Notes under the pieces: generated by a model
What the model was told of the DNA's origin: nothing
The model's input: the letters and a program-made list of their open reading frames with translations, nothing else
Database searches by the model: none
Shown: one piece after another, positions 247 through 62,921 of the stretch
Position numbering within the stretch: the first letter of the stretch is position 1
Layout of the letters: the number at the start of each line of letters is the position of its first letter
Made by a program: the position numbers and the translations under genes
Source: Kiritimatiellia bacterium
GTDB taxonomy: Bacteria > Verrucomicrobiota > Kiritimatiellia > RFP12 > UBA1067
Assembly (NCBI GenBank): GCA_017514235.1
Contig: JAFWKK010000042.1
Coordinates: 73,483 to 137,482, forward strand
Length of the DNA stretch: 64,000 nucleotides
Reading direction: 5' to 3'

Positions 247-1698
247 ATGTCTGACAAGGGCAAGATGTCCAACTTCCGTTGGATGATCTGTTCGTTGCTG
301 TTCTTTGCGACGACGGTGAACTACCTCGACCGCCAGGTGCTGTCGCTGACGTGGAAGGACTTCATCGCGCCGGAGTTCCACTGGACTGACGCCGACTATG
401 GCGTCATCACCGGCTACTTCTCGCTCATCTACGCCTTCTGCAACCTGTTCGCAGGCAAGTTCGTCGACTGGATGGGCACGAAGAAGGGCTACATGTGGGC
501 GATTTTCATCTGGTCTCTTGCGGCGTGCCTTCACGCGGCCTGCGGCTGGGGCACGGTGCTGTTCGTTGACGGCGTGGACTCGGTTGCGGCGATGCGCACG
601 GTAGAGGCCGGCTCGGCCGTGGCGCTCTCTGTGGCGTCCGTCTCCGTCTGGCTCTTCCTCGGCTGCCGCTGCATGCTGGCGCTTGGCGAAGCCGGGAACT
701 TCCCGGCGGCCATCAAGGTGACCGCCGAGTACTTCCCGCCGAAGGACCGTGCGTTCTCGACGTCGATCTTCAACTCCGGCTCGTCCGTCGGTGCGCTTGC
801 CGCTCCTGCGACGATTCCGCTCATCGCCGAGTACTGCGGCTGGGAGATGGCTTTCATCATCATAGGCGCCCTCGGTTTCGTGTGGATGGGCTTCTGGCAG
901 TTCCTTTACAAGAAGCCTGCGGAAAACCCGAGGGTGAATGCGGAGGAGCTGGCGTACATTTCGGCGGGCGAGGCGCGGGCTGCCGGAAAGTCCGAAAGCT
1001 CCGGAACTTCCGAAGACAGGGGCATCGGATATCTGAGGGCGTTCTCGCTGCGCCAGACCTGGTCGCTCGTGCTCGGGCGCCTCCTTACCGACGGCGTGTG
1101 GTGGTTCTTCCTCTTCTGGACGCCGGGCTACCTTTCCGACCAGTTCGGCTACAAGAGCTCTTCCGGCATGGGCATGGCGCTCATAGTCACGCTTTACGCC
1201 ATCGTGACGTTCGCGTCGATCTACCTCTGCAAGCTGCCGACGTGGTTTGTTGACAAGAAGGGCATGAACGCCTACGAAGGCCGCATGGTGGCGATGTTCC
1301 TCTTCGCGTGCCTGCCGCTTCTTGCGCTTGGCGCACAGCCGCTCGGAAAGTTCAGCGCGTGGTGGCCGGCGATCCTGATCGGCTGCGCGTGCGCGGGGCA
1401 CCAGGCGTGGAGCGCGAACATCTACTCGTGCGTGAGCGACATGTTCCCCAAGTCCTGCATTGGCACGCTGACTGGCATCGCGCAGTGCGCGGCGGGCCTC
1501 GGCAGCTTCCTCGTGAACCTCTATGCCGGCAGGCTCTTCACGTATGCGGCGGAGAAGGGCGACGCCTTCGCGTTCCTCGGCTATACCGGCAAGCCCGCGG
1601 GCTACATGATCGTGTTCTGCTACTGCGCCGTCGCCTACATCGTGGGCTGGGCGTGCATGAAGTCGCTCGTGCCGCGCTACAGGAAGGTCGAGCTGTAG
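247..1698 (+). CDS. MFS transporter (anion:cation symporter / hexuronate-type family)
   Basis: ORF 133..1698 in frame; ATG at 247 gives MSDKGKMSNFRWMICSLLFF...; many hydrophobic segments; N-terminal NYLDRQ motif typical of ACS-family MFS. Confidence 0.7.
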   Translation: MSDKGKMSNFRWMICSLLFFATTVNYLDRQVLSLTWKDFIAPEFHWTDADYGVITGYFSLIYAFCNLFAGKFVDWMGTKKGYMWAIFIWSLAACLHAACGWGTVLFVDGVDSVAAMRTVEAGSAVALSVASVSVWLFLGCRCMLALGEAGNFPAAIKVTAEYFPPKDRAFSTSIFNSGSSVGALAAPATIPLIAEYCGWEMAFIIIGALGFVWMGFWQFLYKKPAENPRVNAEELAYISAGEARAAGKSESSGTSEDRGIGYLRAFSLRQTWSLVLGRLLTDGVWWFFLFWTPGYLSDQFGYKSSSGMGMALIVTLYAIVTFASIYLCKLPTWFVDKKGMNAYEGRMVAMFLFACLPLLALGAQPLGKFSAWWPAILIGCACAGHQAWSANIYSCVSDMFPKSCIGTLTGIAQCAAGLGSFLVNLYAGRLFTYAAEKGDAFAFLGYTGKPAGYMIVFCYCAVAYIVGWACMKSLVPRYRKVEL

Positions 1699-4321: not shown

Positions 4322-6637
4322 ATGACGACTCCGGCCCAGTTCATCGACGACCCGGGCTGGGCCGATTTCCTGCCAGAATCGCACGAGGCGGTGCGAGCGC
4401 GGCACCTTCCCGCGCACGAGGACTGTTCCAGGCTGGACGAGGAATCCGTCGCGGCGCATCTGCGCTGCGGCGGCACGCTGGGCGCCATGCCCGGCTACGA
4501 GGAGCGTCCCGAACAGGTCGACATGGCTCGTTCGGTTGCTCACGCCTTCAACGCCCGCGAGCATCTCATGATCGAGGCCGGCACCGGCGTCGGCAAGTCG
4601 CTCGCCTACCTCGTGCCGTCGGTCCTGTGGGCCTGGACCAACGACACGCCGGTAATCGTCTCTACGGCGACGCGCAACCTGCAGTCGCAGCTCGTCGGCT
4701 CGGACATTCCGCGCGCCCTGCGCGTCCTAGGCGACGATGCGGCGAAGTTCCGCGTCGCGCTGCTTAAGGGCAGGTCCAACTATCTCTGCCTTCGCGCGGT
4801 CGGCGACTTCTTCGCCGCCGGCTACTGGACCATGTCCGCCGAGGAGCAGGCCCTCATGCCGGCGTTCATCGAATGGCTGCGCGCTACGCCCGACGGCGAC
4901 CTCGACACTTACGACGGCCTGCCGCGACAGCTTATCTCCTGCCCCGGAGACGAGTGCAGCGGCAGGCGATGCCCGTTCTATTCGCGCTGCTTCGTTTACC
5001 GCGCGCGCAAGGCTGCCGCTGCCGCGCACCTAGTGATCGCCAACCACGCGCTCGTTCTTGCTGAGGCGTCCGCGCCCGGAAGCGGACTGTTGCCAGCTTA
5101 CGGACGCCTTGTTCTCGACGAGGCTCACAACCTCGAGTCGATAGCGACTGACTACCTTGGCGCAGAGCTGTCGATGCCGGCCCTGACGCGCATACTGAAC
5201 CGCCTGCTGCGGCGCGGCAAGAGCCGCCGCGGACTGCGCCAGGGCGGAGTCCTGCACGCCATCGAGCGCCAGTTCAGCCGGGGGGCGTTCTCCGGCAGCC
5301 CGGTCGGCGGACGGGTAATGAGCGCGGTGGGCGAGGCGGCGAGGCTCGTCATGCGCATAGTCTCTGCCGCAGACGGTCTCTTTTCGGTTGCCGAGCGGCT
5401 GCTGGCCCCGGCGAAGGGCAAGGACGTCTGTCGCTACCGCGTGGACGGGGTGCGCAGCTTCAGCCTGCACGGCCTTTTCAAGCCGTACGGTTCCGAAGAA
5501 TGGGACGAGACGGAGTTTCGAAGGGCGCAGACCGACCTGGAGTCGGAACTCGCGGCGATGGTCAACCTGCTGCATTCTCTCGGCGGGGCGCTGGAGGAGG
5601 CAGTTCCGGAAGGCGAGCTCAACTATCTCGGGGACCTGGCGGCGCAGGTCTCAGGCATCGCAGAGTCGCTGGTCGCTTTTGCAAACGAGGCGAATTTCGT
5701 AATCTCTGGCGAGAAGGACACGCACGCCTACTGGGTGGAGAGGGTGAGAGCAGAGAGGCGCACCTCGTTCCTGCGCCTCGTTGCCGCGCCGCTGTCGGTG
5801 GCAGATGACTTGCGGCGGCTGTTCTACGACGTCCGCGACTCCGTCGTGCTCTGCTCGGCCACGCTTCGCGTCGGCAACGACTTCGGCTACATGGCGCGGC
5901 GGCTTGGCGCAGCTCCGTCGCCGGACTGCGAGAGTCGCTTCCGCTTCCTTGTTGCGACGAGTCCGTTCGACTATTTTCGGCAGGCTCTCGTGCTTGCTCC
6001 GGACTGCCTGCCTGATCCGTCCGCCGACCCTGCGAAGTACGCCGAGGCGCTGGCCTCGCTTACGAAGGACCTCTTTGCCGTCACGCGCGGGCGCGCCCTT
6101 GTGCTTTTCACGAGTTACGAGATGATGAAGGCCGTGGCCGCCGTCGCGCACCCGTTGCTGATGGAGGCGGGCGTTCGCCTGCTGGTGCAGGGCGAGGGAC
6201 TCTCCCGCGAGTCGATGACGCGCATTTTGCGAGAGTCGGCCCCGCAGGATGAGCCTACCGTGCTTTTCGGGGCTCAGAGCTTCTGGGAAGGCGTAGACGT
6301 CGCAGGGGAGGCGCTTTCGTGCGTCGTGATGGCGCGTCTTCCGTTCGCGCAGGTCGGCGATCCCGTGGTAGAGGCGCGCTCCGAGATGATAGACCGCGCC
6401 GGCGGCAGCTCCTTCCGCGACTACGCGCTTCCCGAGGCAGTGATCAAGTTCCGCCAGGGCTTCGGAAGGCTGATCCGCACGAAGTCCGACAGAGGCGTCG
6501 TAATCGTAACAGACCCGCGCCTCGTCACGAAGAGCTACGGGGCGACGTTCCGCAAGTCGATACCGGCGTCCGTCCACACGGTGACGGAGCAGGGCGAGCT
6601 CCTCGCCCGCGTCGGCGCGTTCTTCTCAAGCCTTTAG
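4322..6637 (+). CDS. ATP-dependent DNA helicase, DinG/Rad3-like (DEAD_2 plus helicase C_2)
   Basis: Walker A AGTGVGKSLAYL, DEAH-like VLDEAHNLE, 771 aa, C-terminal helicase motifs QGFGRLIRT. Confidence 0.8.
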   Translation: MTTPAQFIDDPGWADFLPESHEAVRARHLPAHEDCSRLDEESVAAHLRCGGTLGAMPGYEERPEQVDMARSVAHAFNAREHLMIEAGTGVGKSLAYLVPSVLWAWTNDTPVIVSTATRNLQSQLVGSDIPRALRVLGDDAAKFRVALLKGRSNYLCLRAVGDFFAAGYWTMSAEEQALMPAFIEWLRATPDGDLDTYDGLPRQLISCPGDECSGRRCPFYSRCFVYRARKAAAAAHLVIANHALVLAEASAPGSGLLPAYGRLVLDEAHNLESIATDYLGAELSMPALTRILNRLLRRGKSRRGLRQGGVLHAIERQFSRGAFSGSPVGGRVMSAVGEAARLVMRIVSAADGLFSVAERLLAPAKGKDVCRYRVDGVRSFSLHGLFKPYGSEEWDETEFRRAQTDLESELAAMVNLLHSLGGALEEAVPEGELNYLGDLAAQVSGIAESLVAFANEANFVISGEKDTHAYWVERVRAERRTSFLRLVAAPLSVADDLRRLFYDVRDSVVLCSATLRVGNDFGYMARRLGAAPSPDCESRFRFLVATSPFDYFRQALVLAPDCLPDPSADPAKYAEALASLTKDLFAVTRGRALVLFTSYEMMKAVAAVAHPLLMEAGVRLLVQGEGLSRESMTRILRESAPQDEPTVLFGAQSFWEGVDVAGEALSCVVMARLPFAQVGDPVVEARSEMIDRAGGSSFRDYALPEAVIKFRQGFGRLIRTKSDRGVVIVTDPRLVTKSYGATFRKSIPASVHTVTEQGELLARVGAFFSSL

Positions 6638-28750: not shown

Positions 28751-28780
28751 TTGACTTGATGTAACCAATAGGTTAAAATA
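28751..28780 (+). promoter_or_regulatory. sigma70-like promoter TTGACT-N18-TAAAAT at the island boundary
   Basis: clean -35/-10 pair in an AT-rich stretch, pointing into the first four-helix-bundle element. Confidence 0.45.
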
Positions 28781-28834
28781 CGCGTCAGACGGTTCGGATG
28801 ATAGTCATGTCATCTATGGACAAAATAGCTATTG

Positions 28835-28872
28835 TGAGGTATTCGGCTGCATACCCCACGGGCGCGGAGCGT
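28835..28872 (+). repeat. 38-nt conserved leader motif, copy 1 (identical to 45029-45066)
   Basis: TGAGGTATTCGGCTGCATACCCCACGGGCGCGGAGCGT, exact match to copy 2; contains the small hairpin GGTAT-TCGGCTGC-ATACC. Confidence 0.85.
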
Positions 28873-28874
28873 AT

Positions 28875-28932
28875 GCTTAGTTGGAGGTAGGAGTTGGAGT
28901 TGGAGGTAGGAGTTGGAGGTAGGAGTTGGAGG
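28875..28932 (+). repeat. purine-rich tandem array (unit about TTGGAGGTAGGAG, about 4 copies) upstream of four-helix-bundle gene 1
   Basis: direct repeats read from the sequence; roughly complementary to the array at 29305-29435. Confidence 0.85.
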
Positions 28933-29304
28933 ATGGAGGGGCAGGATTTTCAGTACAGGAATTTGATTGTGTGGCAAAAGGCCATGCGGTTCTCTAAAGC
29001 CGTTTATGCGCTGATCAATCAATTCCCCGTAGCAGAGAAGTATGCGCTTTCTGATCAGGTTCGTCGTGCGGCAGTGAGTGTTCCTAGCAACATTGCGGAA
29101 GGATGTGGACGCGCCTCAAATCGTGACTATGCTCATTTCCTGTCGATCGCACGTGGTTCATTGTATGAAACAATGACACAGCTGGAATTGGCACAATCGC
29201 TTGGATACATTGATGCTATCAAAGATATCGAAGAGTTGGCCTCGGAGATAAGTCGTATGCTAACAACATTGATGAAGAAATACACGCCGCTCTCCAAATC
29301 CTAA
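28933..29304 (+). CDS. four-helix-bundle protein (23S rRNA intervening-sequence protein / Avd-like family), copy 1
   Basis: IVWQKAMRFSKAVYALINQFP..EKYALSDQVRRAAVSVPSNIAEGCGRASNRDYAHFLSIARGSLYE..TQLELA is the hallmark of this family; the ORF track extends the start into the repeat array via TTG, and I prefer the ATG at 28933. Confidence 0.8.
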   Translation: MEGQDFQYRNLIVWQKAMRFSKAVYALINQFPVAEKYALSDQVRRAAVSVPSNIAEGCGRASNRDYAHFLSIARGSLYETMTQLELAQSLGYIDAIKDIEELASEISRMLTTLMKKYTPLSKS

Positions 29305-29435
29305 CTCTACCTCTCCCCTCCAACTCCACCTCTCCCCTCCAACTCCACCTCTCCCCTCCAACTCCACCTCTCCCCTCCAACTCCAACTCTCTCCTCCAAC
29401 TCCAACTCCAACTCTTTTCTCCAACTCATCTCCCC
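29305..29435 (+). repeat. pyrimidine-rich tandem array (unit about CTCCACCTCTCCCCTCCAA, about 4 copies, then CTCCAACTC variants) downstream of four-helix-bundle gene 1
   Basis: direct repeats; reverse-complement related to the upstream array (TTGGAGG versus CCTCCAA). Confidence 0.85.
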
Positions 29436-29687
29436 TTGAACACAATTGACCATATCGGCTCCGCGTTCTTGCGCCGTATCCTCCGCCGCATGAAGGAGAT
29501 GGGCGTGTCGCAGACGGAGCTTGCCAAGCGCATGAAGGTGTCCCGTCCGTATGTCACGAAGGTGCTGCACCGAGACGTGAACTTCTCGTTCAAGACGGCG
29601 GCTCGGCTTGCGGATGCGCTAAAGATGGACTTCTTTCCGGAGCTGCGTCCCAAGGAAGGTTCTTCGGTGCCCGATGAGGGCAAGTAA
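29436..29687 (+). CDS. XRE-family helix-turn-helix transcriptional regulator
   Basis: GVSQTELAKRMKVSRPYVTKVL is an HTH_XRE motif; the true start is probably an internal ATG near 29490, since the track start is TTG. Confidence 0.55.
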   Translation: MNTIDHIGSAFLRRILRRMKEMGVSQTELAKRMKVSRPYVTKVLHRDVNFSFKTAARLADALKMDFFPELRPKEGSSVPDEGK

Positions 29688-29717
29688 TACAAACCAAAAA
29701 AGAAAAGGAGAATAACA

Positions 29718-29945
29718 ATGAAGTCATTCCTGTTCGCCAATGTGCCGCTGAGCGCGGTGCATTTCATCCTGTTCTTGATCTTCAAGGGCAGTTTCCTCGG
29801 ACAGCCAGGCTATGCCGTCGCCAATGCGCTCGGTGCGGCGTCAGGCGGCGTCATCTGGTGGCTGATCATGGTCGTCAACTCCCTCGTCTGGGGTGCCGTC
29901 CTCTCCCTCTTCGTCTTTCCGCTCATCCGCAAGATTCTGAAGTAA
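29718..29945 (+). CDS. small two-TM membrane protein
   Basis: AAAAGGAGAATAACA-ATG ribosome-binding site; two hydrophobic helices; no family recognised. Confidence 0.4.
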   Translation: MKSFLFANVPLSAVHFILFLIFKGSFLGQPGYAVANALGAASGGVIWWLIMVVNSLVWGAVLSLFVFPLIRKILK

Positions 29946-42957: not shown

Positions 42958-42974
42958 GAACCACGAAATACACT
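42958..42974 (+). repeat. 17-bp direct repeat TGAACCACGAAATACAC (copy 1; copy 2 at 43422-43438)
   Basis: exact duplicate flanking the GT2 pseudogene fragment. Confidence 0.7.
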
Positions 42975-43125
42975 AAATACACGAAAGAGAAAATCAACCC
43001 CTAGGATTATGTTGCACGGACATAATGTTTTTCGGCATAATATTCGATTCAAAGGCAGAAACGAAGATTAAACACCATTAAATTAATGGCGGTTAAATAA
43101 TGAGGTTTTTGAGTATTGCCGTTTT

Positions 43126-43412
43126 TTTCCATAATCATCCCGGTCTATAACGTCGCGCCCTATCTGCGCGAGTGCCTGAATTCCGTCTTGTCGCAGACGT
43201 TCGCCGATTGGGAGGCGATCTGCGTTGACGATGGTTCGACCAACGGGTTCTGGCTCGATTCTTGATGAATATGCTACATGTGACTGGTGATTCCGTGTCA
43301 TCCACCAGCTCAACGCCGGTGTTAGCGCGGACAGAAATGCCGGCATGTTAAATGCGGTTGGCGAATACATTACATTTCTGGACGGAGATGATGTGTATGA
43401 TCCGGGCGTCAG
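43126..43412 (+). pseudogene. GT2 glycosyltransferase remnant (5' module only, frameshifted, no start codon)
   Basis: nucleotide-level match to the GT2 5' module (PFFSIIIPVYNVAPYLRECLNSVLSQTFADWEAICVDDGST) then frameshift and stop; truncated at the second TGAACCACGAAATACAC repeat. Confidence 0.7.
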
Positions 43413-43421
43413 GGGTCGGTC

Positions 43422-43438
43422 TGAACCACGAAATACAC
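43422..43438 (+). repeat. 17-bp direct repeat TGAACCACGAAATACAC (copy 2)
   Basis: see copy 1. Confidence 0.7.
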
Positions 43439-43519
43439 GAAAAGGGGAAGATCGAGAGTTAGATAATGGCGTAAAATCAGCGATTGACAAGTCGGATTTC
43501 GTTGTGATATAACTCTTGT

Positions 43520-43590
43520 GCAATGAAAAATTGAGTGAGGTAATGAGTTAGTGGGGAAGGGAGGATTTGAGTGGTGGGGACTTCAAGTGG
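43520..43590 (+). repeat. orphan purine-rich repeat patch (TGAGTGAGGTAATGAGTTAGTGGGGAAGGGAGG...)
   Basis: reverse complement resembles the CT-rich repeats upstream of wzx-1. Confidence 0.35.
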
Positions 43591-43602
43591 GTTGCCAAGG
43601 CG

Positions 43603-43666
43603 GCGGATTTTACGGCGGAAGTGGAAAAACGGCGGCGTTTTTTACGGTTGCGCCGTAAAATCCGCC
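43603..43666 (+). promoter_or_regulatory. perfect 16-bp inverted repeat GGCGGATTTTACGGCG ... CGCCGTAAAATCCGCC (plus a partial third copy) upstream of the ATPase gene promoter
   Basis: seen directly; possible operator or terminator hairpin. Confidence 0.5.
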
Positions 43667-43687
43667 GTTGCGTTAGGGCGGCTGATA

Positions 43688-43703: not shown

Positions 43704-44864
43704 ATGGGCATAAAAAGAAAGTTGAAAGATGCCGAAGGCAGTTATTTCTTATTCGGTCCGCGTGGAACGGGCAAGACGACCTGGCTCGATGAAAATCTAT
43801 CAGATGCCATTCGGATATCGCTGCTTGACGCTGCAACTAAGCGGGAGCTTCGATCTTATCCCGAACGACTGGAGAATTATATAGGCGGAGCAAAAGACAA
43901 GACGGTTGTTATTGACGAGGTGCAGCGCGCGCCTGAACTGTTGAGTGTCGTTCATCGCCTCATGGATGAAAAACGCGGGTTGAGGTTTGTGATGACTGGA
44001 TCCAGTGCCCGCAAGCTCAAGCGAAACGCTTCTGCCGATTTGCTTGCCGGACGGGCTATAAAGAGGATGTGCCACCCGTTTCTGGCATCGGAGATGGGCG
44101 AAGCATTCCGGCTGGAGGAGGCTTTGCGACTTGGCATGATACCCTTGGTTCGCTATCCTGAAAGTGGTACAAGCGAAGATGTGCTCAAGACGTATCTCGA
44201 TTTGTATCTTGAAGAGGAAATCACGACAGAGGGTGTGATTCGAAACCTTGACTCGTTCTCGAGGTTCTTGCAAGTGGCAAGCTTCTCGCACGGAAGCGTT
44301 CTGTCGGCAAGTTCCATTGCTCGTGAATCCGGCATAAAACGTTCCACGATCGACTCGTATTTTGACGTCTTGGAGGAAATGCTTGTCGCGTCCAGACTGC
44401 CGGTGTTCAACAAAAGAGCCAAGCGTCAGTTGATAGGGCACGACAAATTCTATTTTTTCGATACTGGAGTGTTTAGGTCGCTTCGTCCCAAAGGGCCACT
44501 GGACAATCCAAATGAGATTGACGGCGTGAGTCTTGAAGGCTTGGTTTATCAGCAGCTGAAAGCATGGAACGATTACCTTGTCGAGCCTAATTCACTGTAT
44601 TTCTGGCGAACGAAGAACGGCGTCGAGGTTGATTTTGTCGTTTACGGCGAGAACACGTTTTTTGCGCTGGAAGTGAAGAACTCCTGCTATGCGGAGCGCA
44701 AAGATGCGCAGTCGCTCGAATCGTTCGTTTCCGATTATCCGGAAGCACAAGCATTGCTCCTCTACCGAGGGGGGCAGGTTCAGCAAGTTTCGCCGCATGT
44801 TAAGGTGATGCCCGTTGAAGAGTTCCTGCTGGGACTTGATCCTTCAAAACCTTTGCACTTTTGA
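43704..44864 (+). CDS. ATP-binding protein (AAA domain plus DUF4143-type C-terminus)
   Basis: Walker A FGPRGTGKTT, Walker B VVIDEVQ; architecture of the common AAA_14/DUF4143 proteins. Confidence 0.65.
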   Translation: MGIKRKLKDAEGSYFLFGPRGTGKTTWLDENLSDAIRISLLDAATKRELRSYPERLENYIGGAKDKTVVIDEVQRAPELLSVVHRLMDEKRGLRFVMTGSSARKLKRNASADLLAGRAIKRMCHPFLASEMGEAFRLEEALRLGMIPLVRYPESGTSEDVLKTYLDLYLEEEITTEGVIRNLDSFSRFLQVASFSHGSVLSASSIARESGIKRSTIDSYFDVLEEMLVASRLPVFNKRAKRQLIGHDKFYFFDTGVFRSLRPKGPLDNPNEIDGVSLEGLVYQQLKAWNDYLVEPNSLYFWRTKNGVEVDFVVYGENTFFALEVKNSCYAERKDAQSLESFVSDYPEAQALLLYRGGQVQQVSPHVKVMPVEEFLLGLDPSKPLHF

Positions 44865-44972
44865 GTGGAAGAGTGGGGGATTTTGAGCCGTGACGGGGAA
44901 ATCTGCGCCGCGATTCCGTGCGTCGCTTCCGCCCGGTGGTTCGAGAATTGATTCACATGGCGCGGGAAAAAA

Positions 44973-44981
44973 TGGTATAAT
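44973..44981 (+). promoter_or_regulatory. extended -10 TGGTATAAT upstream of four-helix-bundle element 2
   Basis: about 45 nt upstream of the conserved 38-nt leader. Confidence 0.45.
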
Positions 44982-45028
44982 ACACAACAAGCGATGGACT
45001 TGCGAAAGGACGTGTTCGGGTCGTCGTA

Positions 45029-45066
45029 TGAGGTATTCGGCTGCATACCCCACGGGCGCGGAGCGT
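45029..45066 (+). repeat. 38-nt conserved leader motif, copy 2
   Basis: exact match to 28835-28872. Confidence 0.85.
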
Positions 45067-45104
45067 CTTGTCAGTAGTCGGGGGTCAGGGGCCAGAGGAT
45101 AGAG
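45067..45104 (+). repeat. purine-rich short array (GGGGGTCAGGGGCCAGAGGATAGAGG) upstream of four-helix-bundle gene 2
   Basis: complementary in character to CCTGACTCC repeats downstream. Confidence 0.55.
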
Positions 45105-45461
45105 GTGGTTAAGACTTATAAAGAGTTAGTGGCTTGGCAAAAGGGGATGTCGCTTGTGAAAGCCGTCTATGCTTTAGTGAAACGGTTCCCAAAAGTTGAG
45201 CAATATCGACTTGTTGACCAGTTGACGCGTGCTGCAGTCAGTGTGCCATCTAACATTGCAGAGGGATTCGGTAGGGCTACCAACAAAGATTTCGCACACT
45301 TCCTGTCGCAGGCTCGAGGCTCGCTGTTTGAAGTAGAGACGCAGTTGTTGATAGCAAAGGATCTTGGATTTGTTGGTGATGTAACGTCAGAGCTTGAACT
45401 ATCTTCCGAACTTGGGAAGATCCTAAATGGTCTCATACGTAAACTACTCCCTGTCCCCTAA
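45105..45461 (+). CDS. four-helix-bundle protein (23S rRNA IVS protein / Avd-like family), copy 2
   Basis: LVAWQKGMSLVKAVYALVKRFPKVEQYRLVDQLTRAAVSVPSNIAEGFGRATNKDFAHFLSQARGSLFEVETQL; GTG start. Confidence 0.8.
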   Translation: MVKTYKELVAWQKGMSLVKAVYALVKRFPKVEQYRLVDQLTRAAVSVPSNIAEGFGRATNKDFAHFLSQARGSLFEVETQLLIAKDLGFVGDVTSELELSSELGKILNGLIRKLLPVP

Positions 45462-45497
45462 CTCCTGACTCCTGTCTCCTGACTCCTGCCCCCTAAA
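45462..45497 (+). repeat. pyrimidine-rich short array (CTCCTGACTCCTGTCTCCTGACTCCTGCCCC) downstream of four-helix-bundle gene 2 and directly before the GT2 start
   Basis: seen directly. Confidence 0.6.
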
Positions 45498-46535
45498 ATG
45501 CCTTTCTTCTCCATCATCATCCCGGTCTACAATGTCGCGCCCTATCTGCGCGAGTGCTTGGACTCTGTCTTGGCGCAGTCATTTGCAGATTGGGAAGCGA
45601 TCTGTGTCGATGACGGTTCGACTGATGATTCAGGCGCGATTCTAGATGAATATGCGGCGAAGGATCCGCGCTTTCATGTTATCCATCAGCAAAATGCAGG
45701 TGTCAGCGCCGCAAGAAACAAGGCGCTTGAAGTCGTTGCAGGGAAATGGTTTCTTTTTCTGGATGGTGATGATTTACTTTATAGCGATGCTCTGGAAGTT
45801 TTTATTCCATATATAAGATATGATGATGTTGATGGGATTCTTGTGCATCCATATACTTCTTCTTGGGATGGGAATGGTGTCCCACAACGAAATTGTGTTG
45901 TCGATGTTCTTGTGAAAGATGCTTCAAAGGAAGATTTATTCATAGGACCGTATGCGGCAAATGGTTTTTCATTTTCGCGTATTTATTCCACAAGAATATT
46001 TAGGCACTTACGTTTTAGGGAAGACATGTCCATGTCGGAAGATGTTTGTTTTTGGTTTGATGCTTTAAGCGTTACTGCGCGGTGGATGATATTGCGTGCG
46101 GAATATTATCTTTATCGTCAACGGGGCGATTCTGTGTGTGGGGAAAACGATCCACATAAATGCGGACAGATTCTGGAATCCGTTTTACATGCGCTTAATG
46201 TAATTGACAAACGGCTTGATGTTTCTAAATCTGCTGGAGCTAGATATTTGAGGCGTTTCCCGTCGTCTCCAAGATATTATATTGGTCTTGCCGTATGCAG
46301 ATATAAAGAACTTACTGATGAGGAATGGGATGATTTGTCGAATAAAGTAAAAGCCATTGATGCTATATGTGGGCGATGGTCATTGGGTGTTTTTGTCAAT
46401 TTATTAATGGCGTTTGCGGTAAATAGACGATTGCGTTTCGTGCTGCCAATATTGCTAAGAATGAGTAATTGCTATGATTGTCTGAGAATTCAAGTTGGTG
46501 GATTGTCACGAAAATTAGGTTTTATAAGAAGATGA
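45498..46535 (+). CDS. family 2 glycosyltransferase (conserved 5' module)
   Basis: FSIIIPVYNVAPYLRECLDSVLAQSFADWEAICVDDGSTDDS. Confidence 0.8.
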   Translation: MPFFSIIIPVYNVAPYLRECLDSVLAQSFADWEAICVDDGSTDDSGAILDEYAAKDPRFHVIHQQNAGVSAARNKALEVVAGKWFLFLDGDDLLYSDALEVFIPYIRYDDVDGILVHPYTSSWDGNGVPQRNCVVDVLVKDASKEDLFIGPYAANGFSFSRIYSTRIFRHLRFREDMSMSEDVCFWFDALSVTARWMILRAEYYLYRQRGDSVCGENDPHKCGQILESVLHALNVIDKRLDVSKSAGARYLRRFPSSPRYYIGLAVCRYKELTDEEWDDLSNKVKAIDAICGRWSLGVFVNLLMAFAVNRRLRFVLPILLRMSNCYDCLRIQVGGLSRKLGFIRR

Positions 46536-59574: not shown

Positions 59575-60867
59575 ATGTTTCGTAGGGTAATTTATCAGGC
59601 AAAGTGGCGCTTGCATCATCCGACGGCGTTCGCACGGTTTGCCGATATTATGGCGAATCTCGAGAAGTCGTCTGGCCAGCTTGCTGCCGAACAGGAAGTG
59701 GCACGGCAGAGAATAGTTCGCCATGCGATGGCCCATACTGTTTTTTACAGGGAGAAATATACGGACGCGGGCTTTGGGTTGTCCGACATCGGCAGACAGG
59801 GGTGGTTCGAGAAGTTGCCGATAGTGACTAAGAATGACCTTCGCGAACGCTTCGCCGATTTCGTCGATACAGATCGGCGGCAGTTCTTGGCTGTCTCGAC
59901 TACCGGCGGTTCTACGGGTGTGCCCACCAAGACAGGCTACGACAGGCGCATTCCCGAAGAAGTTTATTCATGGCGGCTCCAGTCGTGCTACGGCGTCCAT
60001 CCTTGGGACGACCATGCATACGTGTGGCGGGATACGCGGCGTTCGAAGTGGGCGAAGTTGAAGAATGCCGCCGCATGGTGGCCGACGCGCCACCTGAAAC
60101 TCGATGCCACGTTGCTGAGCGACGCTGCGATGGATGAATTTATTGAGAAGTTCAATCGTCTGAAGCCTTGCCTGCTGCAGGGATATGTGGGCGCAGTTTC
60201 GCAGCTTGCGGAATATATGCTCAAGTCAGGCAAGGCCATTGCCTTGTCACCGAAAGTCGTATGGACCACCTCGGCCCCTCTGTCGGAAGTTCAGAGACGC
60301 CTGATTGAGACGGCTTTTGGCGCTCCGGTGTGCGATGAGTACGGTAGCTGCGAGTGCCGCTGGATAGCCTTTCAGCGGCCTGGGCATGAAGGATTGCGCG
60401 TCAATACGGAGCATGTGCATATAGAGTTTTTGCCAGACCAGGGCGGAGATGGGCATGGATATGGTCGGACGCTTTTGACCAATCTTGAAGATACGGTTTT
60501 TCCATTGATCCGCTACGAGAACGGCGACCGTGGCCGTTGGCTTGACTATCCCTACATTGATTCGGTAAAGGGACGGGAAGTGGAGTCGTTTGTCCTCACG
60601 TCGGGGAAAGTGGTCAACGGCGAATACCTCACAACGATCTTCGACGAGTCGCCGGATTTGGTGTATGGCTTTAGGGCCGTACAGCATGCGGATCTTAGCA
60701 TAACGATCGAGTACATTCCGGCGAAGGATGAGGGCAAGGTGCTGGAAGTCCTGCAGAAATTCGCGGACAAGATCGAAGGCGACGCCGTCGTTGACTTCAA
60801 ACGCGTCGACCAAATCTCGCATGACAGAGGCAAGCTTCGCTTTGTAGTGCGGGAAGTGAAAGGTTGA
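59575..60867 (+). CDS. CapK-like adenylate-forming enzyme (phenylacetate-CoA ligase / F390 synthetase family)
   Basis: length and motif pattern (STTGGSTGVPT adenylation motif, C-terminal region) of PaaK/CapK-like proteins in capsule loci. Confidence 0.6.
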   Translation: MFRRVIYQAKWRLHHPTAFARFADIMANLEKSSGQLAAEQEVARQRIVRHAMAHTVFYREKYTDAGFGLSDIGRQGWFEKLPIVTKNDLRERFADFVDTDRRQFLAVSTTGGSTGVPTKTGYDRRIPEEVYSWRLQSCYGVHPWDDHAYVWRDTRRSKWAKLKNAAAWWPTRHLKLDATLLSDAAMDEFIEKFNRLKPCLLQGYVGAVSQLAEYMLKSGKAIALSPKVVWTTSAPLSEVQRRLIETAFGAPVCDEYGSCECRWIAFQRPGHEGLRVNTEHVHIEFLPDQGGDGHGYGRTLLTNLEDTVFPLIRYENGDRGRWLDYPYIDSVKGREVESFVLTSGKVVNGEYLTTIFDESPDLVYGFRAVQHADLSITIEYIPAKDEGKVLEVLQKFADKIEGDAVVDFKRVDQISHDRGKLRFVVREVKG

Positions 60868-60931
60868 GAGGTTCGAGAGGTTTGGGCGGTTTGAGAAGTT
60901 CGAAAGTTCGAGAGTTTGAAAGTTTGAGAGT
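60868..60931 (+). repeat. purine-rich tandem array (GTTYGAGAG units) upstream of four-helix-bundle gene 3
   Basis: GTTGAGAGGTTCGAGAGGTTTGGGCGGTTTGAGAAGTTCGAAAGTTCGAGAGTTTGAAAGTTTGAGAGT; begins at the stop codon of the CapK-like gene. Confidence 0.8.
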
Positions 60932-61321
60932 ATGGCAACAATAAAACGATTCACCGATATCGTTGCGTGGCAAAAGAGCCGCGAGATGGTAAAGCGGATT
61001 TACGAGTTGACTCGGCGTGAGCCATTCTCCAGAGATTGGGGATTGAAGGATCAGATACAGCGAGCTTCAGTAAGCATATGCAGCAACATCGCTGAAGGAT
61101 TTGAACGGAGCGGGGACAAGGAGTTCGTGAATTTTCTCTGGATTGCAAAAGGATCAGTAGGGGAAGTAGCCTCCCAATTGTACAATGCAAAGGATTGCGG
61201 GTACGTTGATGAAGAAGACTTCATTTCGTTGCAAGAAGATCTGAAGTTGTTGAGTGCAATGCTTTATAGCTTAATTCGGTCAATGAAAACTTCATCCTTG
61301 AAAGGTGAGCGATATAAGTAA
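60932..61321 (+). CDS. four-helix-bundle protein (23S rRNA IVS protein / Avd-like family), copy 3
   Basis: IVAWQKSREMVKRIYELT...DQIQRASVSICSNIAEGFERSGDKEFVNFLWIAKGSVGEVASQL. Confidence 0.8.
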   Translation: MATIKRFTDIVAWQKSREMVKRIYELTRREPFSRDWGLKDQIQRASVSICSNIAEGFERSGDKEFVNFLWIAKGSVGEVASQLYNAKDCGYVDEEDFISLQEDLKLLSAMLYSLIRSMKTSSLKGERYK

Positions 61322-61457
61322 CCTTCAAACTTTCAAACTTTCAAACCTTCAAACTTTCAAACTTTCAAACCTTCAAACTCTCAAACTTTCAAACCTTCAA
61401 ACTCTCAAACTTTCAAACCTTTCGAACCTTCAAACCTCCCAAACTTTCCACCCTCCC
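61322..61457 (+). repeat. pyrimidine-rich tandem array (CTTTCAAAC/CTCTCAAAC units, about 14 copies) downstream of four-helix-bundle gene 3
   Basis: reverse-complement relationship to the upstream GTTTGAGAG array. Confidence 0.85.
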
Positions 61458-62921
61458 ATGTTCTCACACCTTTACGATCGCAAGTATCTTTTTAAATGCC
61501 TTTTGTCTATGGCGTTTCTTTTTGGCCTTATGAAGGCGACGGGCGGGTCGGGCTTTGTAATCGTTATCCCAATGGTTTTTTATGGATTGCTGTCCCGCAA
61601 GACGGAGTCGCTTTTCTTCTGGCTTCTGATGTCAGTATGTGCAATTATAGCTAATGGTTATGTGATCCCTAAAAATGCGGTGTTTGCCTGGTCGCAGCGT
61701 GGTCTGATGTTGAGTTTAGGTGTTTGTATGGCCTTGAATGTAATGGCATACCCTAAGCATGCCGTCATGAAACCATATCTTGGAATTATATTCTATATTG
61801 TATTTATGTTTTTCTCTTCTGCACAGGGGTGGTGCCCGCCTATTTCCTTCTTGAAGTTGATTTTGTTCACCGTTATTTATTTCTCTTATTTTGGGGTGGC
61901 GAATCAGGTTGGCATTAATCCAACTGTTTCGAGCAAACATGTGCGCAGTGTAATGCTAGCGGTCTCTCTCCTTTTTGTGGTAGGATCGATCTTGCTTGTT
62001 CCGTTCCCAGGCTTGTCGCAGATGAAGCATGACGACTTTGTTGACAGTCCTCTTGCAACAAGCCTTTTTATGGGAATGACCAACCATTCTCAGTGCCTTG
62101 GGCCGGTTGTATCGTCGATCTCAATTGTGGTCTTTGCTGATCTTCTATTTTCTGTTAGGAAATGGGATCCCCTTTATCTTTTCATCTTGTTTTGTTGCCC
62201 CTATCTTATCTACAAGACATCGAGTCGAACGGGCATGGGTGCCTATGTGCTTGGCATGATGTTTGTGGCGTATATTTTCATGCGTGCGCGGGGTGTAGGG
62301 TCGCGATGGAAATCGCGAGCCTTGACGACGGTAATGATATTTTCATGTGGATTGATTCTTGTTTTAGCATGTTTGCCAAGGGTCCAGAAATCGGCACTGC
62401 GATTTCTGTTGAAGACGACCAGCGAAAGCCCGTCTGCCGTAACAGCAGAAGCGGTGATGAGTACGCGGCAGGCACTTATCGACAGGTCACTTTACTATTT
62501 CCGAAAGAAACCTCTCTTGGGGAATGGTTTTCAAGTGTCGGAAGAGATGTCTAGCCTGAAGTTAAAGGGCGTTGCTTCTGTTTTGTCAGCTCCGATTGAG
62601 AAAGGCGTATGGGTTTCAGCAGTGTTGGAGGAAGGAGGCATCATAGGATGGTTGCTTTTTGTTTGGTTTCTTGTGGTCTGTATCATCACGTCAATCAAGC
62701 GACGAGCCTATATTGGAGCGTCATGCCTTTTTCTGAGCATGCTTACAAATCTTGGAGAATTCACGTTCTTCTCTATGTCATACACTGGTGGTTTCACATG
62801 GGCGATGGTTTTTGTAGGCCTTGCGCTTGACATTAGGAAAATGAAGGATGAGAATGCGGCCATCCAGCGTGAAATGATGATGCGTGAGATGCGAATGCAG
62901 CAAGGAGGGGTCGGCAGGTGA
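61458..62921 (+). CDS. O-antigen polymerase/ligase-like (Wzy/WaaL-type) membrane protein
   Basis: about 10-12 TM helices and a large periplasmic loop; start taken at the ATG after the repeat array, since the ORF track begins inside the repeats. Confidence 0.55.
   Translation: MFSHLYDRKYLFKCLLSMAFLFGLMKATGGSGFVIVIPMVFYGLLSRKTESLFFWLLMSVCAIIANGYVIPKNAVFAWSQRGLMLSLGVCMALNVMAYPKHAVMKPYLGIIFYIVFMFFSSAQGWCPPISFLKLILFTVIYFSYFGVANQVGINPTVSSKHVRSVMLAVSLLFVVGSILLVPFPGLSQMKHDDFVDSPLATSLFMGMTNHSQCLGPVVSSISIVVFADLLFSVRKWDPLYLFILFCCPYLIYKTSSRTGMGAYVLGMMFVAYIFMRARGVGSRWKSRALTTVMIFSCGLILVLACLPRVQKSALRFLLKTTSESPSAVTAEAVMSTRQALIDRSLYYFRKKPLLGNGFQVSEEMSSLKLKGVASVLSAPIEKGVWVSAVLEEGGIIGWLLFVWFLVVCIITSIKRRAYIGASCLFLSMLTNLGEFTFFSMSYTGGFTWAMVFVGLALDIRKMKDENAAIQREMMMREMRMQQGGVGR

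Follow-up and report, generated by a model that had tools for sequence, protein, structure and literature searches.

Complementary tandem-repeat arms bracket PF05635 four-helix-bundle genes outside ribosomal RNA: a modest example in a Kiritimatiellia polysaccharide locus

The 64,000-nucleotide (nt) stretch of Kiritimatiellia contig JAFWKK010000042.1 analysed here (the window; G+C content 55%) contains exactly three PF05635-type four-helix-bundle (4HB) genes by tblastn, all on the forward strand, at about 28933-29304, 45105-45461 and 60932-61321. Each is flanked by short repeats, and the genes with their flanks are called elements 1, 2 and 3. Element 2 is the main subject. It lies between an AAA_14/DUF4143 ATPase gene (43704-44864) just upstream and a family-2 glycosyltransferase (GT2) gene downstream, and has three parts, with a Shine-Dalgarno (SD)-like site in the first:

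45063 to 45110, forward strand: 5' arm of element 2, G/A-rich, with GGGGTCAG-type units; it holds the SD-like AGAGGA and the GTG start codon.
45105 to 45461, forward strand: 4HB gene (PF05635/TIGR02436), 118 amino acids, with a GTG start and a TAA stop.
45442 to 45496, forward strand: 3' arm of element 2, C/T-rich, with CTCCTGAC-type units; the paired part is 45442-45489.

The element 2 open reading frame (ORF) scores 121.8 bits against PF05635 (E=1.8e-35; cutoff 33.8) and 120.5 bits against TIGR02436 (E=3.5e-35; cutoff 24), so the four-helix-bundle gene that had been proposed from the letters alone is real. The nearest solved structure is that of Xanthomonas XCC0516 (2GSC, E=1e-21). The conserved family core (WQK ... 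SxPSNIAEG..R ... ARGS..E..TQL) is present, and W11, Q12, R42, S46, SNIAEG at 49-54 and R57 are invariant columns in the alignment of homologues. The protein is under strong purifying selection, with dN/dS values of 0.05-0.09 against the homologues P0003, P0012 and P0010 (P numbers denote proteins, L numbers loci or contigs); its C-terminal tail, encoded by the 3' arm, is variable among close relatives. The closest relatives come from metagenome-assembled genomes (MAGs) of Kiritimatiellae. All homologues begin at one aligned residue (MVK/RT/SY...), where ATG and GTG interchange: the identical protein P0024 has GTG in L097 and ATG in L099, and P0018 and P0019 have ATG where element 2 has GTG. 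The GTG start assigned in the original prediction is thereby supported. Homology to Avd and XCC0516 makes it probable that the protein forms a pentameric ring that binds nucleic acid. The family PF05635 is very large (2,310 matches at E<=0.001 in one search), and its function has been unknown since its discovery in the rRNA intervening sequences (IVSs) of Leptospira and Coxiella. To our knowledge, its only characterised relative is Avd, a protein of diversity-generating retroelements (DGRs). PADLOC gave no match for any of the window's three 4HB proteins.

The two arms of element 2 are predicted to form a 38-bp stem (45063-45110 with 45442-45489), nearly all of whose pairs have a probability of 0.93-1.0 in a 440-nt RNA context, and which is found in both the minimum free energy and the centroid structures of 45025-45505. 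The stem spans the SD-like AGAGGA, the GTG start (45105-45107) and the TAA stop (45459-45461). The 3' arm encodes the last 4HB codons, contains two direct-repeat families (D1 and D2) and ends 1 nt before the GT2 ATG at 45498. The arm-arm duplex reaches -47.1 kcal/mol, against -28.9 +/- 4.1 kcal/mol for composition-matched shuffles (z=-4.5; 0 of 500), so the complementarity exceeds what low-complexity sequence gives by chance. The units are short and degenerate, about three of 8 nt upstream and five to six downstream, and this bracket is the weakest of the three in the window (z=-7 for element 1 and z=-10 for element 3). Ungapped inverted-repeat detection did not pick it up, because the bracket needs bulges; duplex folding did. 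Rfam 15 has no family at gathering thresholds in the 64-kb window and none at E<=10 in 44850-45550, which includes the leader hairpin described below.

The other two elements have the same arrangement:

28873 to 29435, forward strand: element 1, with a 5' arm at 28873-28946 (GGAGGTAG/GGAGTTG units), the 4HB ORF at about 28933-29304 and a 3' arm at 29290-29435.
60850 to 61462, forward strand: element 3, with a 5' arm at 60850-60934 (GTTTGAAA/GTTCGAGA units), the 4HB ORF at 60932-61321 and a 3' arm at 61318-61462.

The element 2 protein is 55% and 44% identical to the other two. All three elements have purine-rich repeats upstream and pyrimidine-rich repeats downstream, and each upstream arm pairs best with its own downstream arm, so that the arm sequence does change from copy to copy with its complementarity kept, as first proposed. 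Element 1 sits between a leader motif and an XRE-type helix-turn-helix (HTH) gene (29436-29687), and element 3 is without the leader motif; the neighbours of these two elements are XRE, GH28, GT4 and Wzy-like genes.

Among close relatives, with proteins 79-92% identical to that of element 2, the units are related yet different, and the two sides remain matched. In P0003, GGGGTCAG/GGAGTCAG is matched by CTGACCCC/CTGACTCC; in P0018, GGAGTTAG/GGGGTTAG by CTAACTCC/CTAACCCC; and in P0010, GTACTTAGG by CCTAAGTAC. P0012 has higher-order units, GTACGAAGG...GGGGTCA, matched by TGACCCC...CCTCCGTAC. This is the co-variation across homologous elements that had been suggested as a check. Loci that are otherwise identical can differ in repeat copy number, and some 3' arrays are longer than 330 nt.

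The bracket is a family-wide architecture of PF05635 genes outside rRNA. A survey of 80 fetched loci with diverse members (Acidobacteriota, Bacteroidota, Planctomycetota, Verrucomicrobiota, Clostridia, Elusimicrobiota, Proteobacteria and the candidate phyla radiation (CPR)) provided 77 4HB genes for the pairing and 7-mer statistics, with 99 neighbouring genes in the same loci as controls. Flank pairing at z<-3 was found for 31 of the 77 4HB genes (40%) and 1 of the 99 control genes (Fisher p=2e-12). Under a strand-symmetric criterion, which requires at least three 7-mers common to the upstream flank and the reverse complement of the downstream flank, sharing is inverted in 54 of 77 genes (70%), direct in 7 and tied in 1, with 15 showing neither. 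Mutual complementarity is thus retained well beyond the window. Tandem Repeats Finder (TRF) detects tandem repeats in 81% of the upstream flanks and 72% of the downstream ones; in control windows placed 1.1 kb away the figure is 21-34%. Of 121 best hits in the flanks, 84 have a period of 7, and most of the others have 14, 21 or 28; the unit length in the window's three elements (8 nt, or 6+7 nt) is their one departure from this pattern. Almost every element has a unit of its own (GGTGCAG, GACGGTG, TTAGTCA, GTCAGTA, TTAGAGG and AGTACCA, among others), which appears downstream as the reverse complement. Of 34 bracket-positive elements, 19 have a 5' arm that pairs best with the cognate 3' arm. 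With units that change and matched arms that stay, the proposal that pairing, not a specific motif, is the relevant property is supported. A G-quadruplex role for the purine arm was set aside, as element 3 and many heptamer arms have too few G-runs.

The arms also differ in composition according to gene direction. Upstream flanks have a mean purine fraction of 0.60 (0.48 in controls) and downstream flanks a mean pyrimidine fraction of 0.56 (0.49 in controls). In the strand-symmetric set, G exceeds C in the 5' arm of 42 loci and C exceeds G in 11 (p=2e-5), and purines exceed pyrimidines in 40 loci, with the reverse in 13; a further polarity count relative to gene direction gave 24 versus 0. The purine-upstream, pyrimidine-downstream polarity described for the window therefore holds across the family, though it is not absolute. 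It is best put as a C-poor arm (16% C) in front and a G-poor arm (17% G) behind. A polarity tied to gene direction argues for a transcription- or translation-linked constraint.

The bracket is also present on cyanobacterial plasmids. The gene on a Calothrix brevissima NIES-22 plasmid (L251; AP018208.1, 70848-71225), annotated as 'S23 ribosomal protein', is bracketed by GGGTGTA/TACACCC heptamers. Among plasmid homologues there is a concentration in heterocystous cyanobacteria: 14 of 37 records, for example, are from Nostoc and 4 from Calothrix. On the Nostoc PCC 7120 plasmids gamma and alpha (L249, L250), a 3' array of CTCTGCC heptamers is kept, and transposase genes lie directly upstream at the place expected for the 5' arm.

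The surroundings of element 2 suggest that it is transcribed with the genes behind it. Three further features are relevant here:

44952 to 44981, forward strand: promoter-like site, TTCACA-18-TATAAT with an extended -10 TG, 11 of 12 consensus matches.
45029 to 45066, forward strand: leader hairpin motif, stem TGAGGTAT/ATACCCCA, loop TCGGCTGC, then GGGCGCGGAGCGT.
45498 to 46535, forward strand: GT2 gene, the first gene downstream of element 2.

No terminator-like site was found anywhere in 44800-45650. Downstream lies a polysaccharide operon with the GT2 gene, an IspD-like cytidylyltransferase gene and an epimerase gene. Judging by these signals, the promoter likely starts a transcript carrying the leader, the cassette formed by arms and gene, and the GT2 operon, and GT2 is probably co-transcribed with the cassette. 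With a promoter in front and no terminator up to GT2, the cassette would therefore lie in the 5' leader of the polysaccharide operon. The arrangement is identical in 10 contigs from independent samples, one of them from MAG assembly GCA_017534195.1.

The leader hairpin is separate from the cassette. The original prediction treated 45029-45500 as one element; the bracket within that interval stands, and the first 37 nt (45030-45066) are a hairpin motif in their own right. An identical 37-nt copy lies at 28836-28872 before element 1, where no exact copy is expected by chance, and the motif lies about 50 nt downstream of promoters. A scan of metagenome contigs with the central 16-mer gave 68 distinct true hairpin copies (L109-L188), only one of which is followed by a 4HB gene. 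The others precede XRE, AbiE-like, MKRIFISSVQKEF...-starting and further genes, often with several copies per contig. With about 67 of 68 copies in front of other genes, the motif was rejected as a part of the cassette. It was also considered as a leader peptide. ATG or GTG begins 64 of the 68 copies, and element 2 has a potential 25-codon upstream ORF from 45027 to a TAG at 45100-45102, ending 2 nt before the GTG. The leader-peptide reading was likewise rejected: the closing pair of the hairpin co-varies (G:C 54, A:T 13, G:T 1, A:C 0), and a diverged variant at the P0024 loci keeps the pairing and changes both the peptide and the reading frame of the conserved block. Since pairing is kept while the peptide changes, the motif is regarded as a nucleic-acid element.

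The closest known counterpart of element 2 is the ORF-bearing IVS of 23S rRNA, as in Coxiella burnetii and Leptospira, in which a PF05635/S23p-type ORF likewise lies within complementary termini that form a long stem. rRNA IVSs are excised from precursor RNA by RNase III, and the ends are not religated. The 38-bp stem of element 2 has a length that would be compatible with such excision. In the helix-45 IVS of Coxiella burnetii, the S23p ORF lies in the loop of a 28-bp terminal stem that is cut by RNase III in vitro, tandem GACAGAT heptamers in strain-variable number precede the ORF, and a purine-rich SD region lies in the arm (PMC4990558). Element 2 likewise has short tandem repeats directly 5' of its ORF and an SD-like purine region in its 5' arm. 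There are also differences. The units are 8 nt (or 6+7 nt) in the window elements and 7 nt in the Coxiella IVS, and strong purifying selection acts on the element 2 ORF, in contrast to that of Coxiella, which is reported as decaying and probably untranslated. Unlike rRNA IVSs, which lie inside a 23S or 16S gene and replace helix 9, 25 or 45, element 2 lies in an mRNA leader or intergenic region of protein-coding operons, and no rRNA is among the Rfam results for the window. The label 'IVS-like' is thus right for the stem of complementary termini and wrong for the location, and is an analogy only, because element 2 is not in rRNA.

Long-range pairing of flanks in a polycistronic transcript, with a duplex of more than 20 bp, is also a feature of the RNase III stems of 16S and 23S rRNA precursors and of inter-cistronic sites in phages T7 and lambda. 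Those stems have unique sequence and belong with no particular protein family, unlike the arms of element 2, which are tandem-repeat arrays tied to PF05635.

With the Coxiella IVS as direct precedent, the explanation preferred here, to which we give about even credence, is that element 2 is an rRNA-IVS-type cassette with an ORF (5' repeat arm, Avd-like 4HB gene, complementary 3' arm) placed in an mRNA leader, and that its arms pair in the transcript as an RNase III-type stem. From this analogy we infer the following course of events. Transcription from the promoter at about 44952-44981 would run through leader hairpin and cassette into the GT2 gene. Once transcribed, the 3' arm would pair with the waiting 5' arm into the 38-bp stem, burying the ribosome-binding region, start codon and stop codon of the cassette. 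RNase III may then cut the stem, as in rRNA IVSs, and so set a small mRNA with paired ends apart from the mRNA of the downstream operon. In that case a transcription unit could tolerate the insertion, and protein expression would depend on the opening or cutting of the stem. Arms made of tandem repeats could pair independently of register, and such pairing would survive the gain or loss of repeats. With one arm C-poor and the other G-poor, neither would fold on itself and both would stay free for long-range pairing. Placing the C-poor arm first may avoid a C-rich Rho-loading tract over the roughly 400 nt before its partner is made. The direction-linked polarity of composition fits a transcript-level constraint of this kind.

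Several results weigh against this explanation. Pairing on the sense strand beats pairing on the antisense strand by a small margin only (p=0.053 with a biased selection on sense z, p=0.06 in the strand-symmetric set), and G-U pairs are equally frequent on the two strands. When the arms of 33 other elements are tried as partners, the cognate arm pair of element 2 comes only 5th of 34, since arms of related unit type, G-rich with C-rich, also pair across elements. The fold of the whole region 45025-45505 is no stabler than shuffles (z=-0.53), and therefore only the arm-arm interaction is special. No empty site or polymorphism was found at element 2, all 10 contigs being identical in the arms. 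The P0024 loci (L097-L102) have a 5' arm and no complementary 3' arm, and the P0019 loci (L103-L108) have GGAGTTAGG-type purine repeats on both sides, in direct orientation; these exceptions indicate that the stem is dispensable for keeping the gene. The P0019 repeats are followed by a TGGTATAAT promoter that is homologous to the promoter upstream of element 2.

The weak sense-strand trend makes a DNA-level role of the arms a serious rival, though a rather unlikely one beside pairing in the transcript. The arms would then be terminal inverted repeats or hairpin or cruciform ends that serve mobility or recombination, or would be kept alike by slippage and gene conversion, and the RNA stem would be a by-product. 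The behaviour of the cassette at XRE operons speaks for this. On contig L158, a promoter with a palindrome that is probably an operator (TAACCAATCGGTTA), a leader, the hairpin, 29 nt and an XRE-type HTH gene follow one another in two places, with no cassette. In element 1 and at the P0003 loci, the promoter, leader, hairpin and XRE gene are shared with L158, and a 4HB gene with two arms lies after the end of the hairpin motif (...GAGCGT) and before ...CCCCT plus the XRE start codon. The operon thus occurs with and without the cassette, and arms and gene therefore behave as one insertion/deletion unit. Two different cassettes occupy this one site, since those of element 1 and P0003 share 53% amino acid identity and have unrelated arms; the identical P0003 protein is found in at least three upstream contexts. 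Arms that evolve in concert, with copy numbers that shift quickly, and the direct-repeat variant P0019 are also in line with a role in DNA, as is the recurrence of arm repeat families at displaced nearby positions in both orientations (15 inverted and 15 direct in the control). Several features are harder to reconcile with it. No transposase or recombinase is encoded in or adjoining the cassettes examined, though such an enzyme might act in trans, and no target-site duplication is visible between filled and empty XRE sites. The arms abut or overlap start and stop codons, and the 42:11 polarity relative to gene direction is unexpected for symmetrical DNA ends.

A palindrome, TAACCAAT(A/C)GGTTA, lies between the -35 and -10 of these XRE operons, in the window at 28753-28785, in L158 at about 95-130 and 4680-4715, and in L001 at about 2810-2845. 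It is conserved in XRE operons both with and without the 4HB cassette, and is probably the operator of the downstream XRE repressor.

The repeat arrays might instead be binding sites, in RNA or DNA, for the encoded 4HB pentamer, with each protein recognising its own unit for autoregulation or for assembly of a nucleoprotein particle, and with complementarity secondary; we consider this improbable. The high frequency of tandem repeats on both flanks, their dominant 7-nt period and the purifying selection on the protein would all suit it. So would the homology to Avd, which in the DGR of Bordetella phage BPP-1 is an accessory protein with a homologous four-helix-bundle fold, a pentameric positively charged barrel that binds nucleic acid and reverse transcriptase (PMC10053308). 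Relatives at least 79% identical have GGrGwyAG-type units in common, which common descent explains equally well. The residues invariant among the homologues are the same across unrelated repeat units, which argues against unit-specific recognition.

That element 2 is an orphan DGR accessory gene (Avd) beside unrelated low-complexity DNA that pairs by chance is very improbable: the similarity to PF22296 (bAvd; 20.3 bits, E=8e-4) and NF033474 (19.9 bits, E=7e-4) is weak and far below the curated cutoffs of 40 and 80 bits, the neighbours are the ATPase and GT2 genes with no adjacent reverse transcriptase or template/variable repeats (the whole window was not screened for reverse transcriptase), the pairing beats shuffles, and the bracket is family-wide and lacking from control genes.

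The arms resemble abundant heptameric intergenic repeats described in the literature. These include the repeats of cyanobacteria (Calothrix; Nostoc GGGGAYT) and the GGGAATC repeats of Xanthomonas, which form about 70 convergent pairs; the source calls their function unknown (PMC4692102). The same holds for the TAACTGA repeats of Beggiatoaceae, Cyanobacteria and Bacteroidetes (PMC4679880). Like the arms, these are intergenic units of 7 nt, often G-rich on one strand and variable in copy number. They are sometimes inverted pairs able to form stem-loops and are mostly transcribed (PMC4692102, PMC4679880). Unlike them, the arms form a gene-specific bracket whose unit differs per element. Text searches of PMC4692102 and PMC4679880 gave no occurrence of S23, 23S, 'intervening', 'four-helix', 'helix bundle' or XCC0516.

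Earlier papers report PF05635 genes within cas operons (PMC3936711) and in insertions of CPR rRNA; the passages that name the family there describe no flanking repeats. The searchable literature, with incomplete coverage that includes few subscription journals, holds no description of a PF05635 bracket or flanking tandem repeats outside rRNA. The bracket outside rRNA thus appears to be undescribed so far, and element 2 represents, in modest form, an architecture that is general in PF05635. The stem-enclosed, repeat-armed arrangement accompanies the gene outside rRNA in Kiritimatiellae, Verrucomicrobia, Planctomycetes, Acidobacteria, Bacteroidota, Clostridia, CPR and cyanobacteria. As the architecture travels with the gene across these groups, the rRNA IVS would be a special case of a general cassette. 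Tentatively, and with rather less confidence than we have in the transcript stem of element 2, PF05635 genes and their strand-polarised complementary arrays of about 7 nt may form one widespread, self-contained class of cassette that settles in transcription units, be it in mRNA leaders, at operon junctions, in cas loci or in rRNA, the ORF-bearing rRNA IVS being its best-known landing site. Part of the heptamer repeat excess and of the inverted pairs (cyanobacterial, Xanthomonas GGGAATC) might then be arms or orphaned arms. The bracket offers handles on the function of PF05635 and on the origin of abundant heptameric tandem repeats.

The arrays also affect gene calling. Spurious ORFs on the reverse strand are read or called in the long pyrimidine 3' arrays, as at 29426-29785 (reverse strand) in the window and at 813-1418 (reverse strand) in L245. 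GTG-started copies are sometimes left uncalled, as in L229 (2108-2464), a contig with an identical element 2 locus.

Related 4HB cassettes often adjoin genes of toxin-antitoxin or defence type (ParE, AbiEii, Fic, Zeta, DUF2971), and in PADLOC the AAA_14/DUF4143 ATPase upstream of element 2 hits PDC-S01, a candidate defence family (E=5e-55). Further upstream, GT2 pseudogene fragments lie at 43116-43265 and 43345-43400, with an N-terminus near-identical to that of the intact GT2 at 45498; the part of the polysaccharide locus that holds the block of ATPase, promoter, leader and cassette is therefore a rearranged mosaic. A purine-rich tract at 43535-43580 (GTGAGGTAATGAGTTAGTGGGGAAGGGAGGATTTGAGTGGTGGGG) has no gene behind it and is followed by a long hairpin (43600-43675); the tract may be an orphan 5' arm of a lost cassette. 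A dispersed short repeat, GAACCACGAAATACAC(G/T)AAA... with CGCAAAG(A/G)-type tandem units, occurs at 42959-42985 and 43416-43441 and in L001, L137, L168, L172 and L181. It is intergenic in this lineage and gives spurious opposite-strand ORFs with 'FRVFRGS'-like translations.

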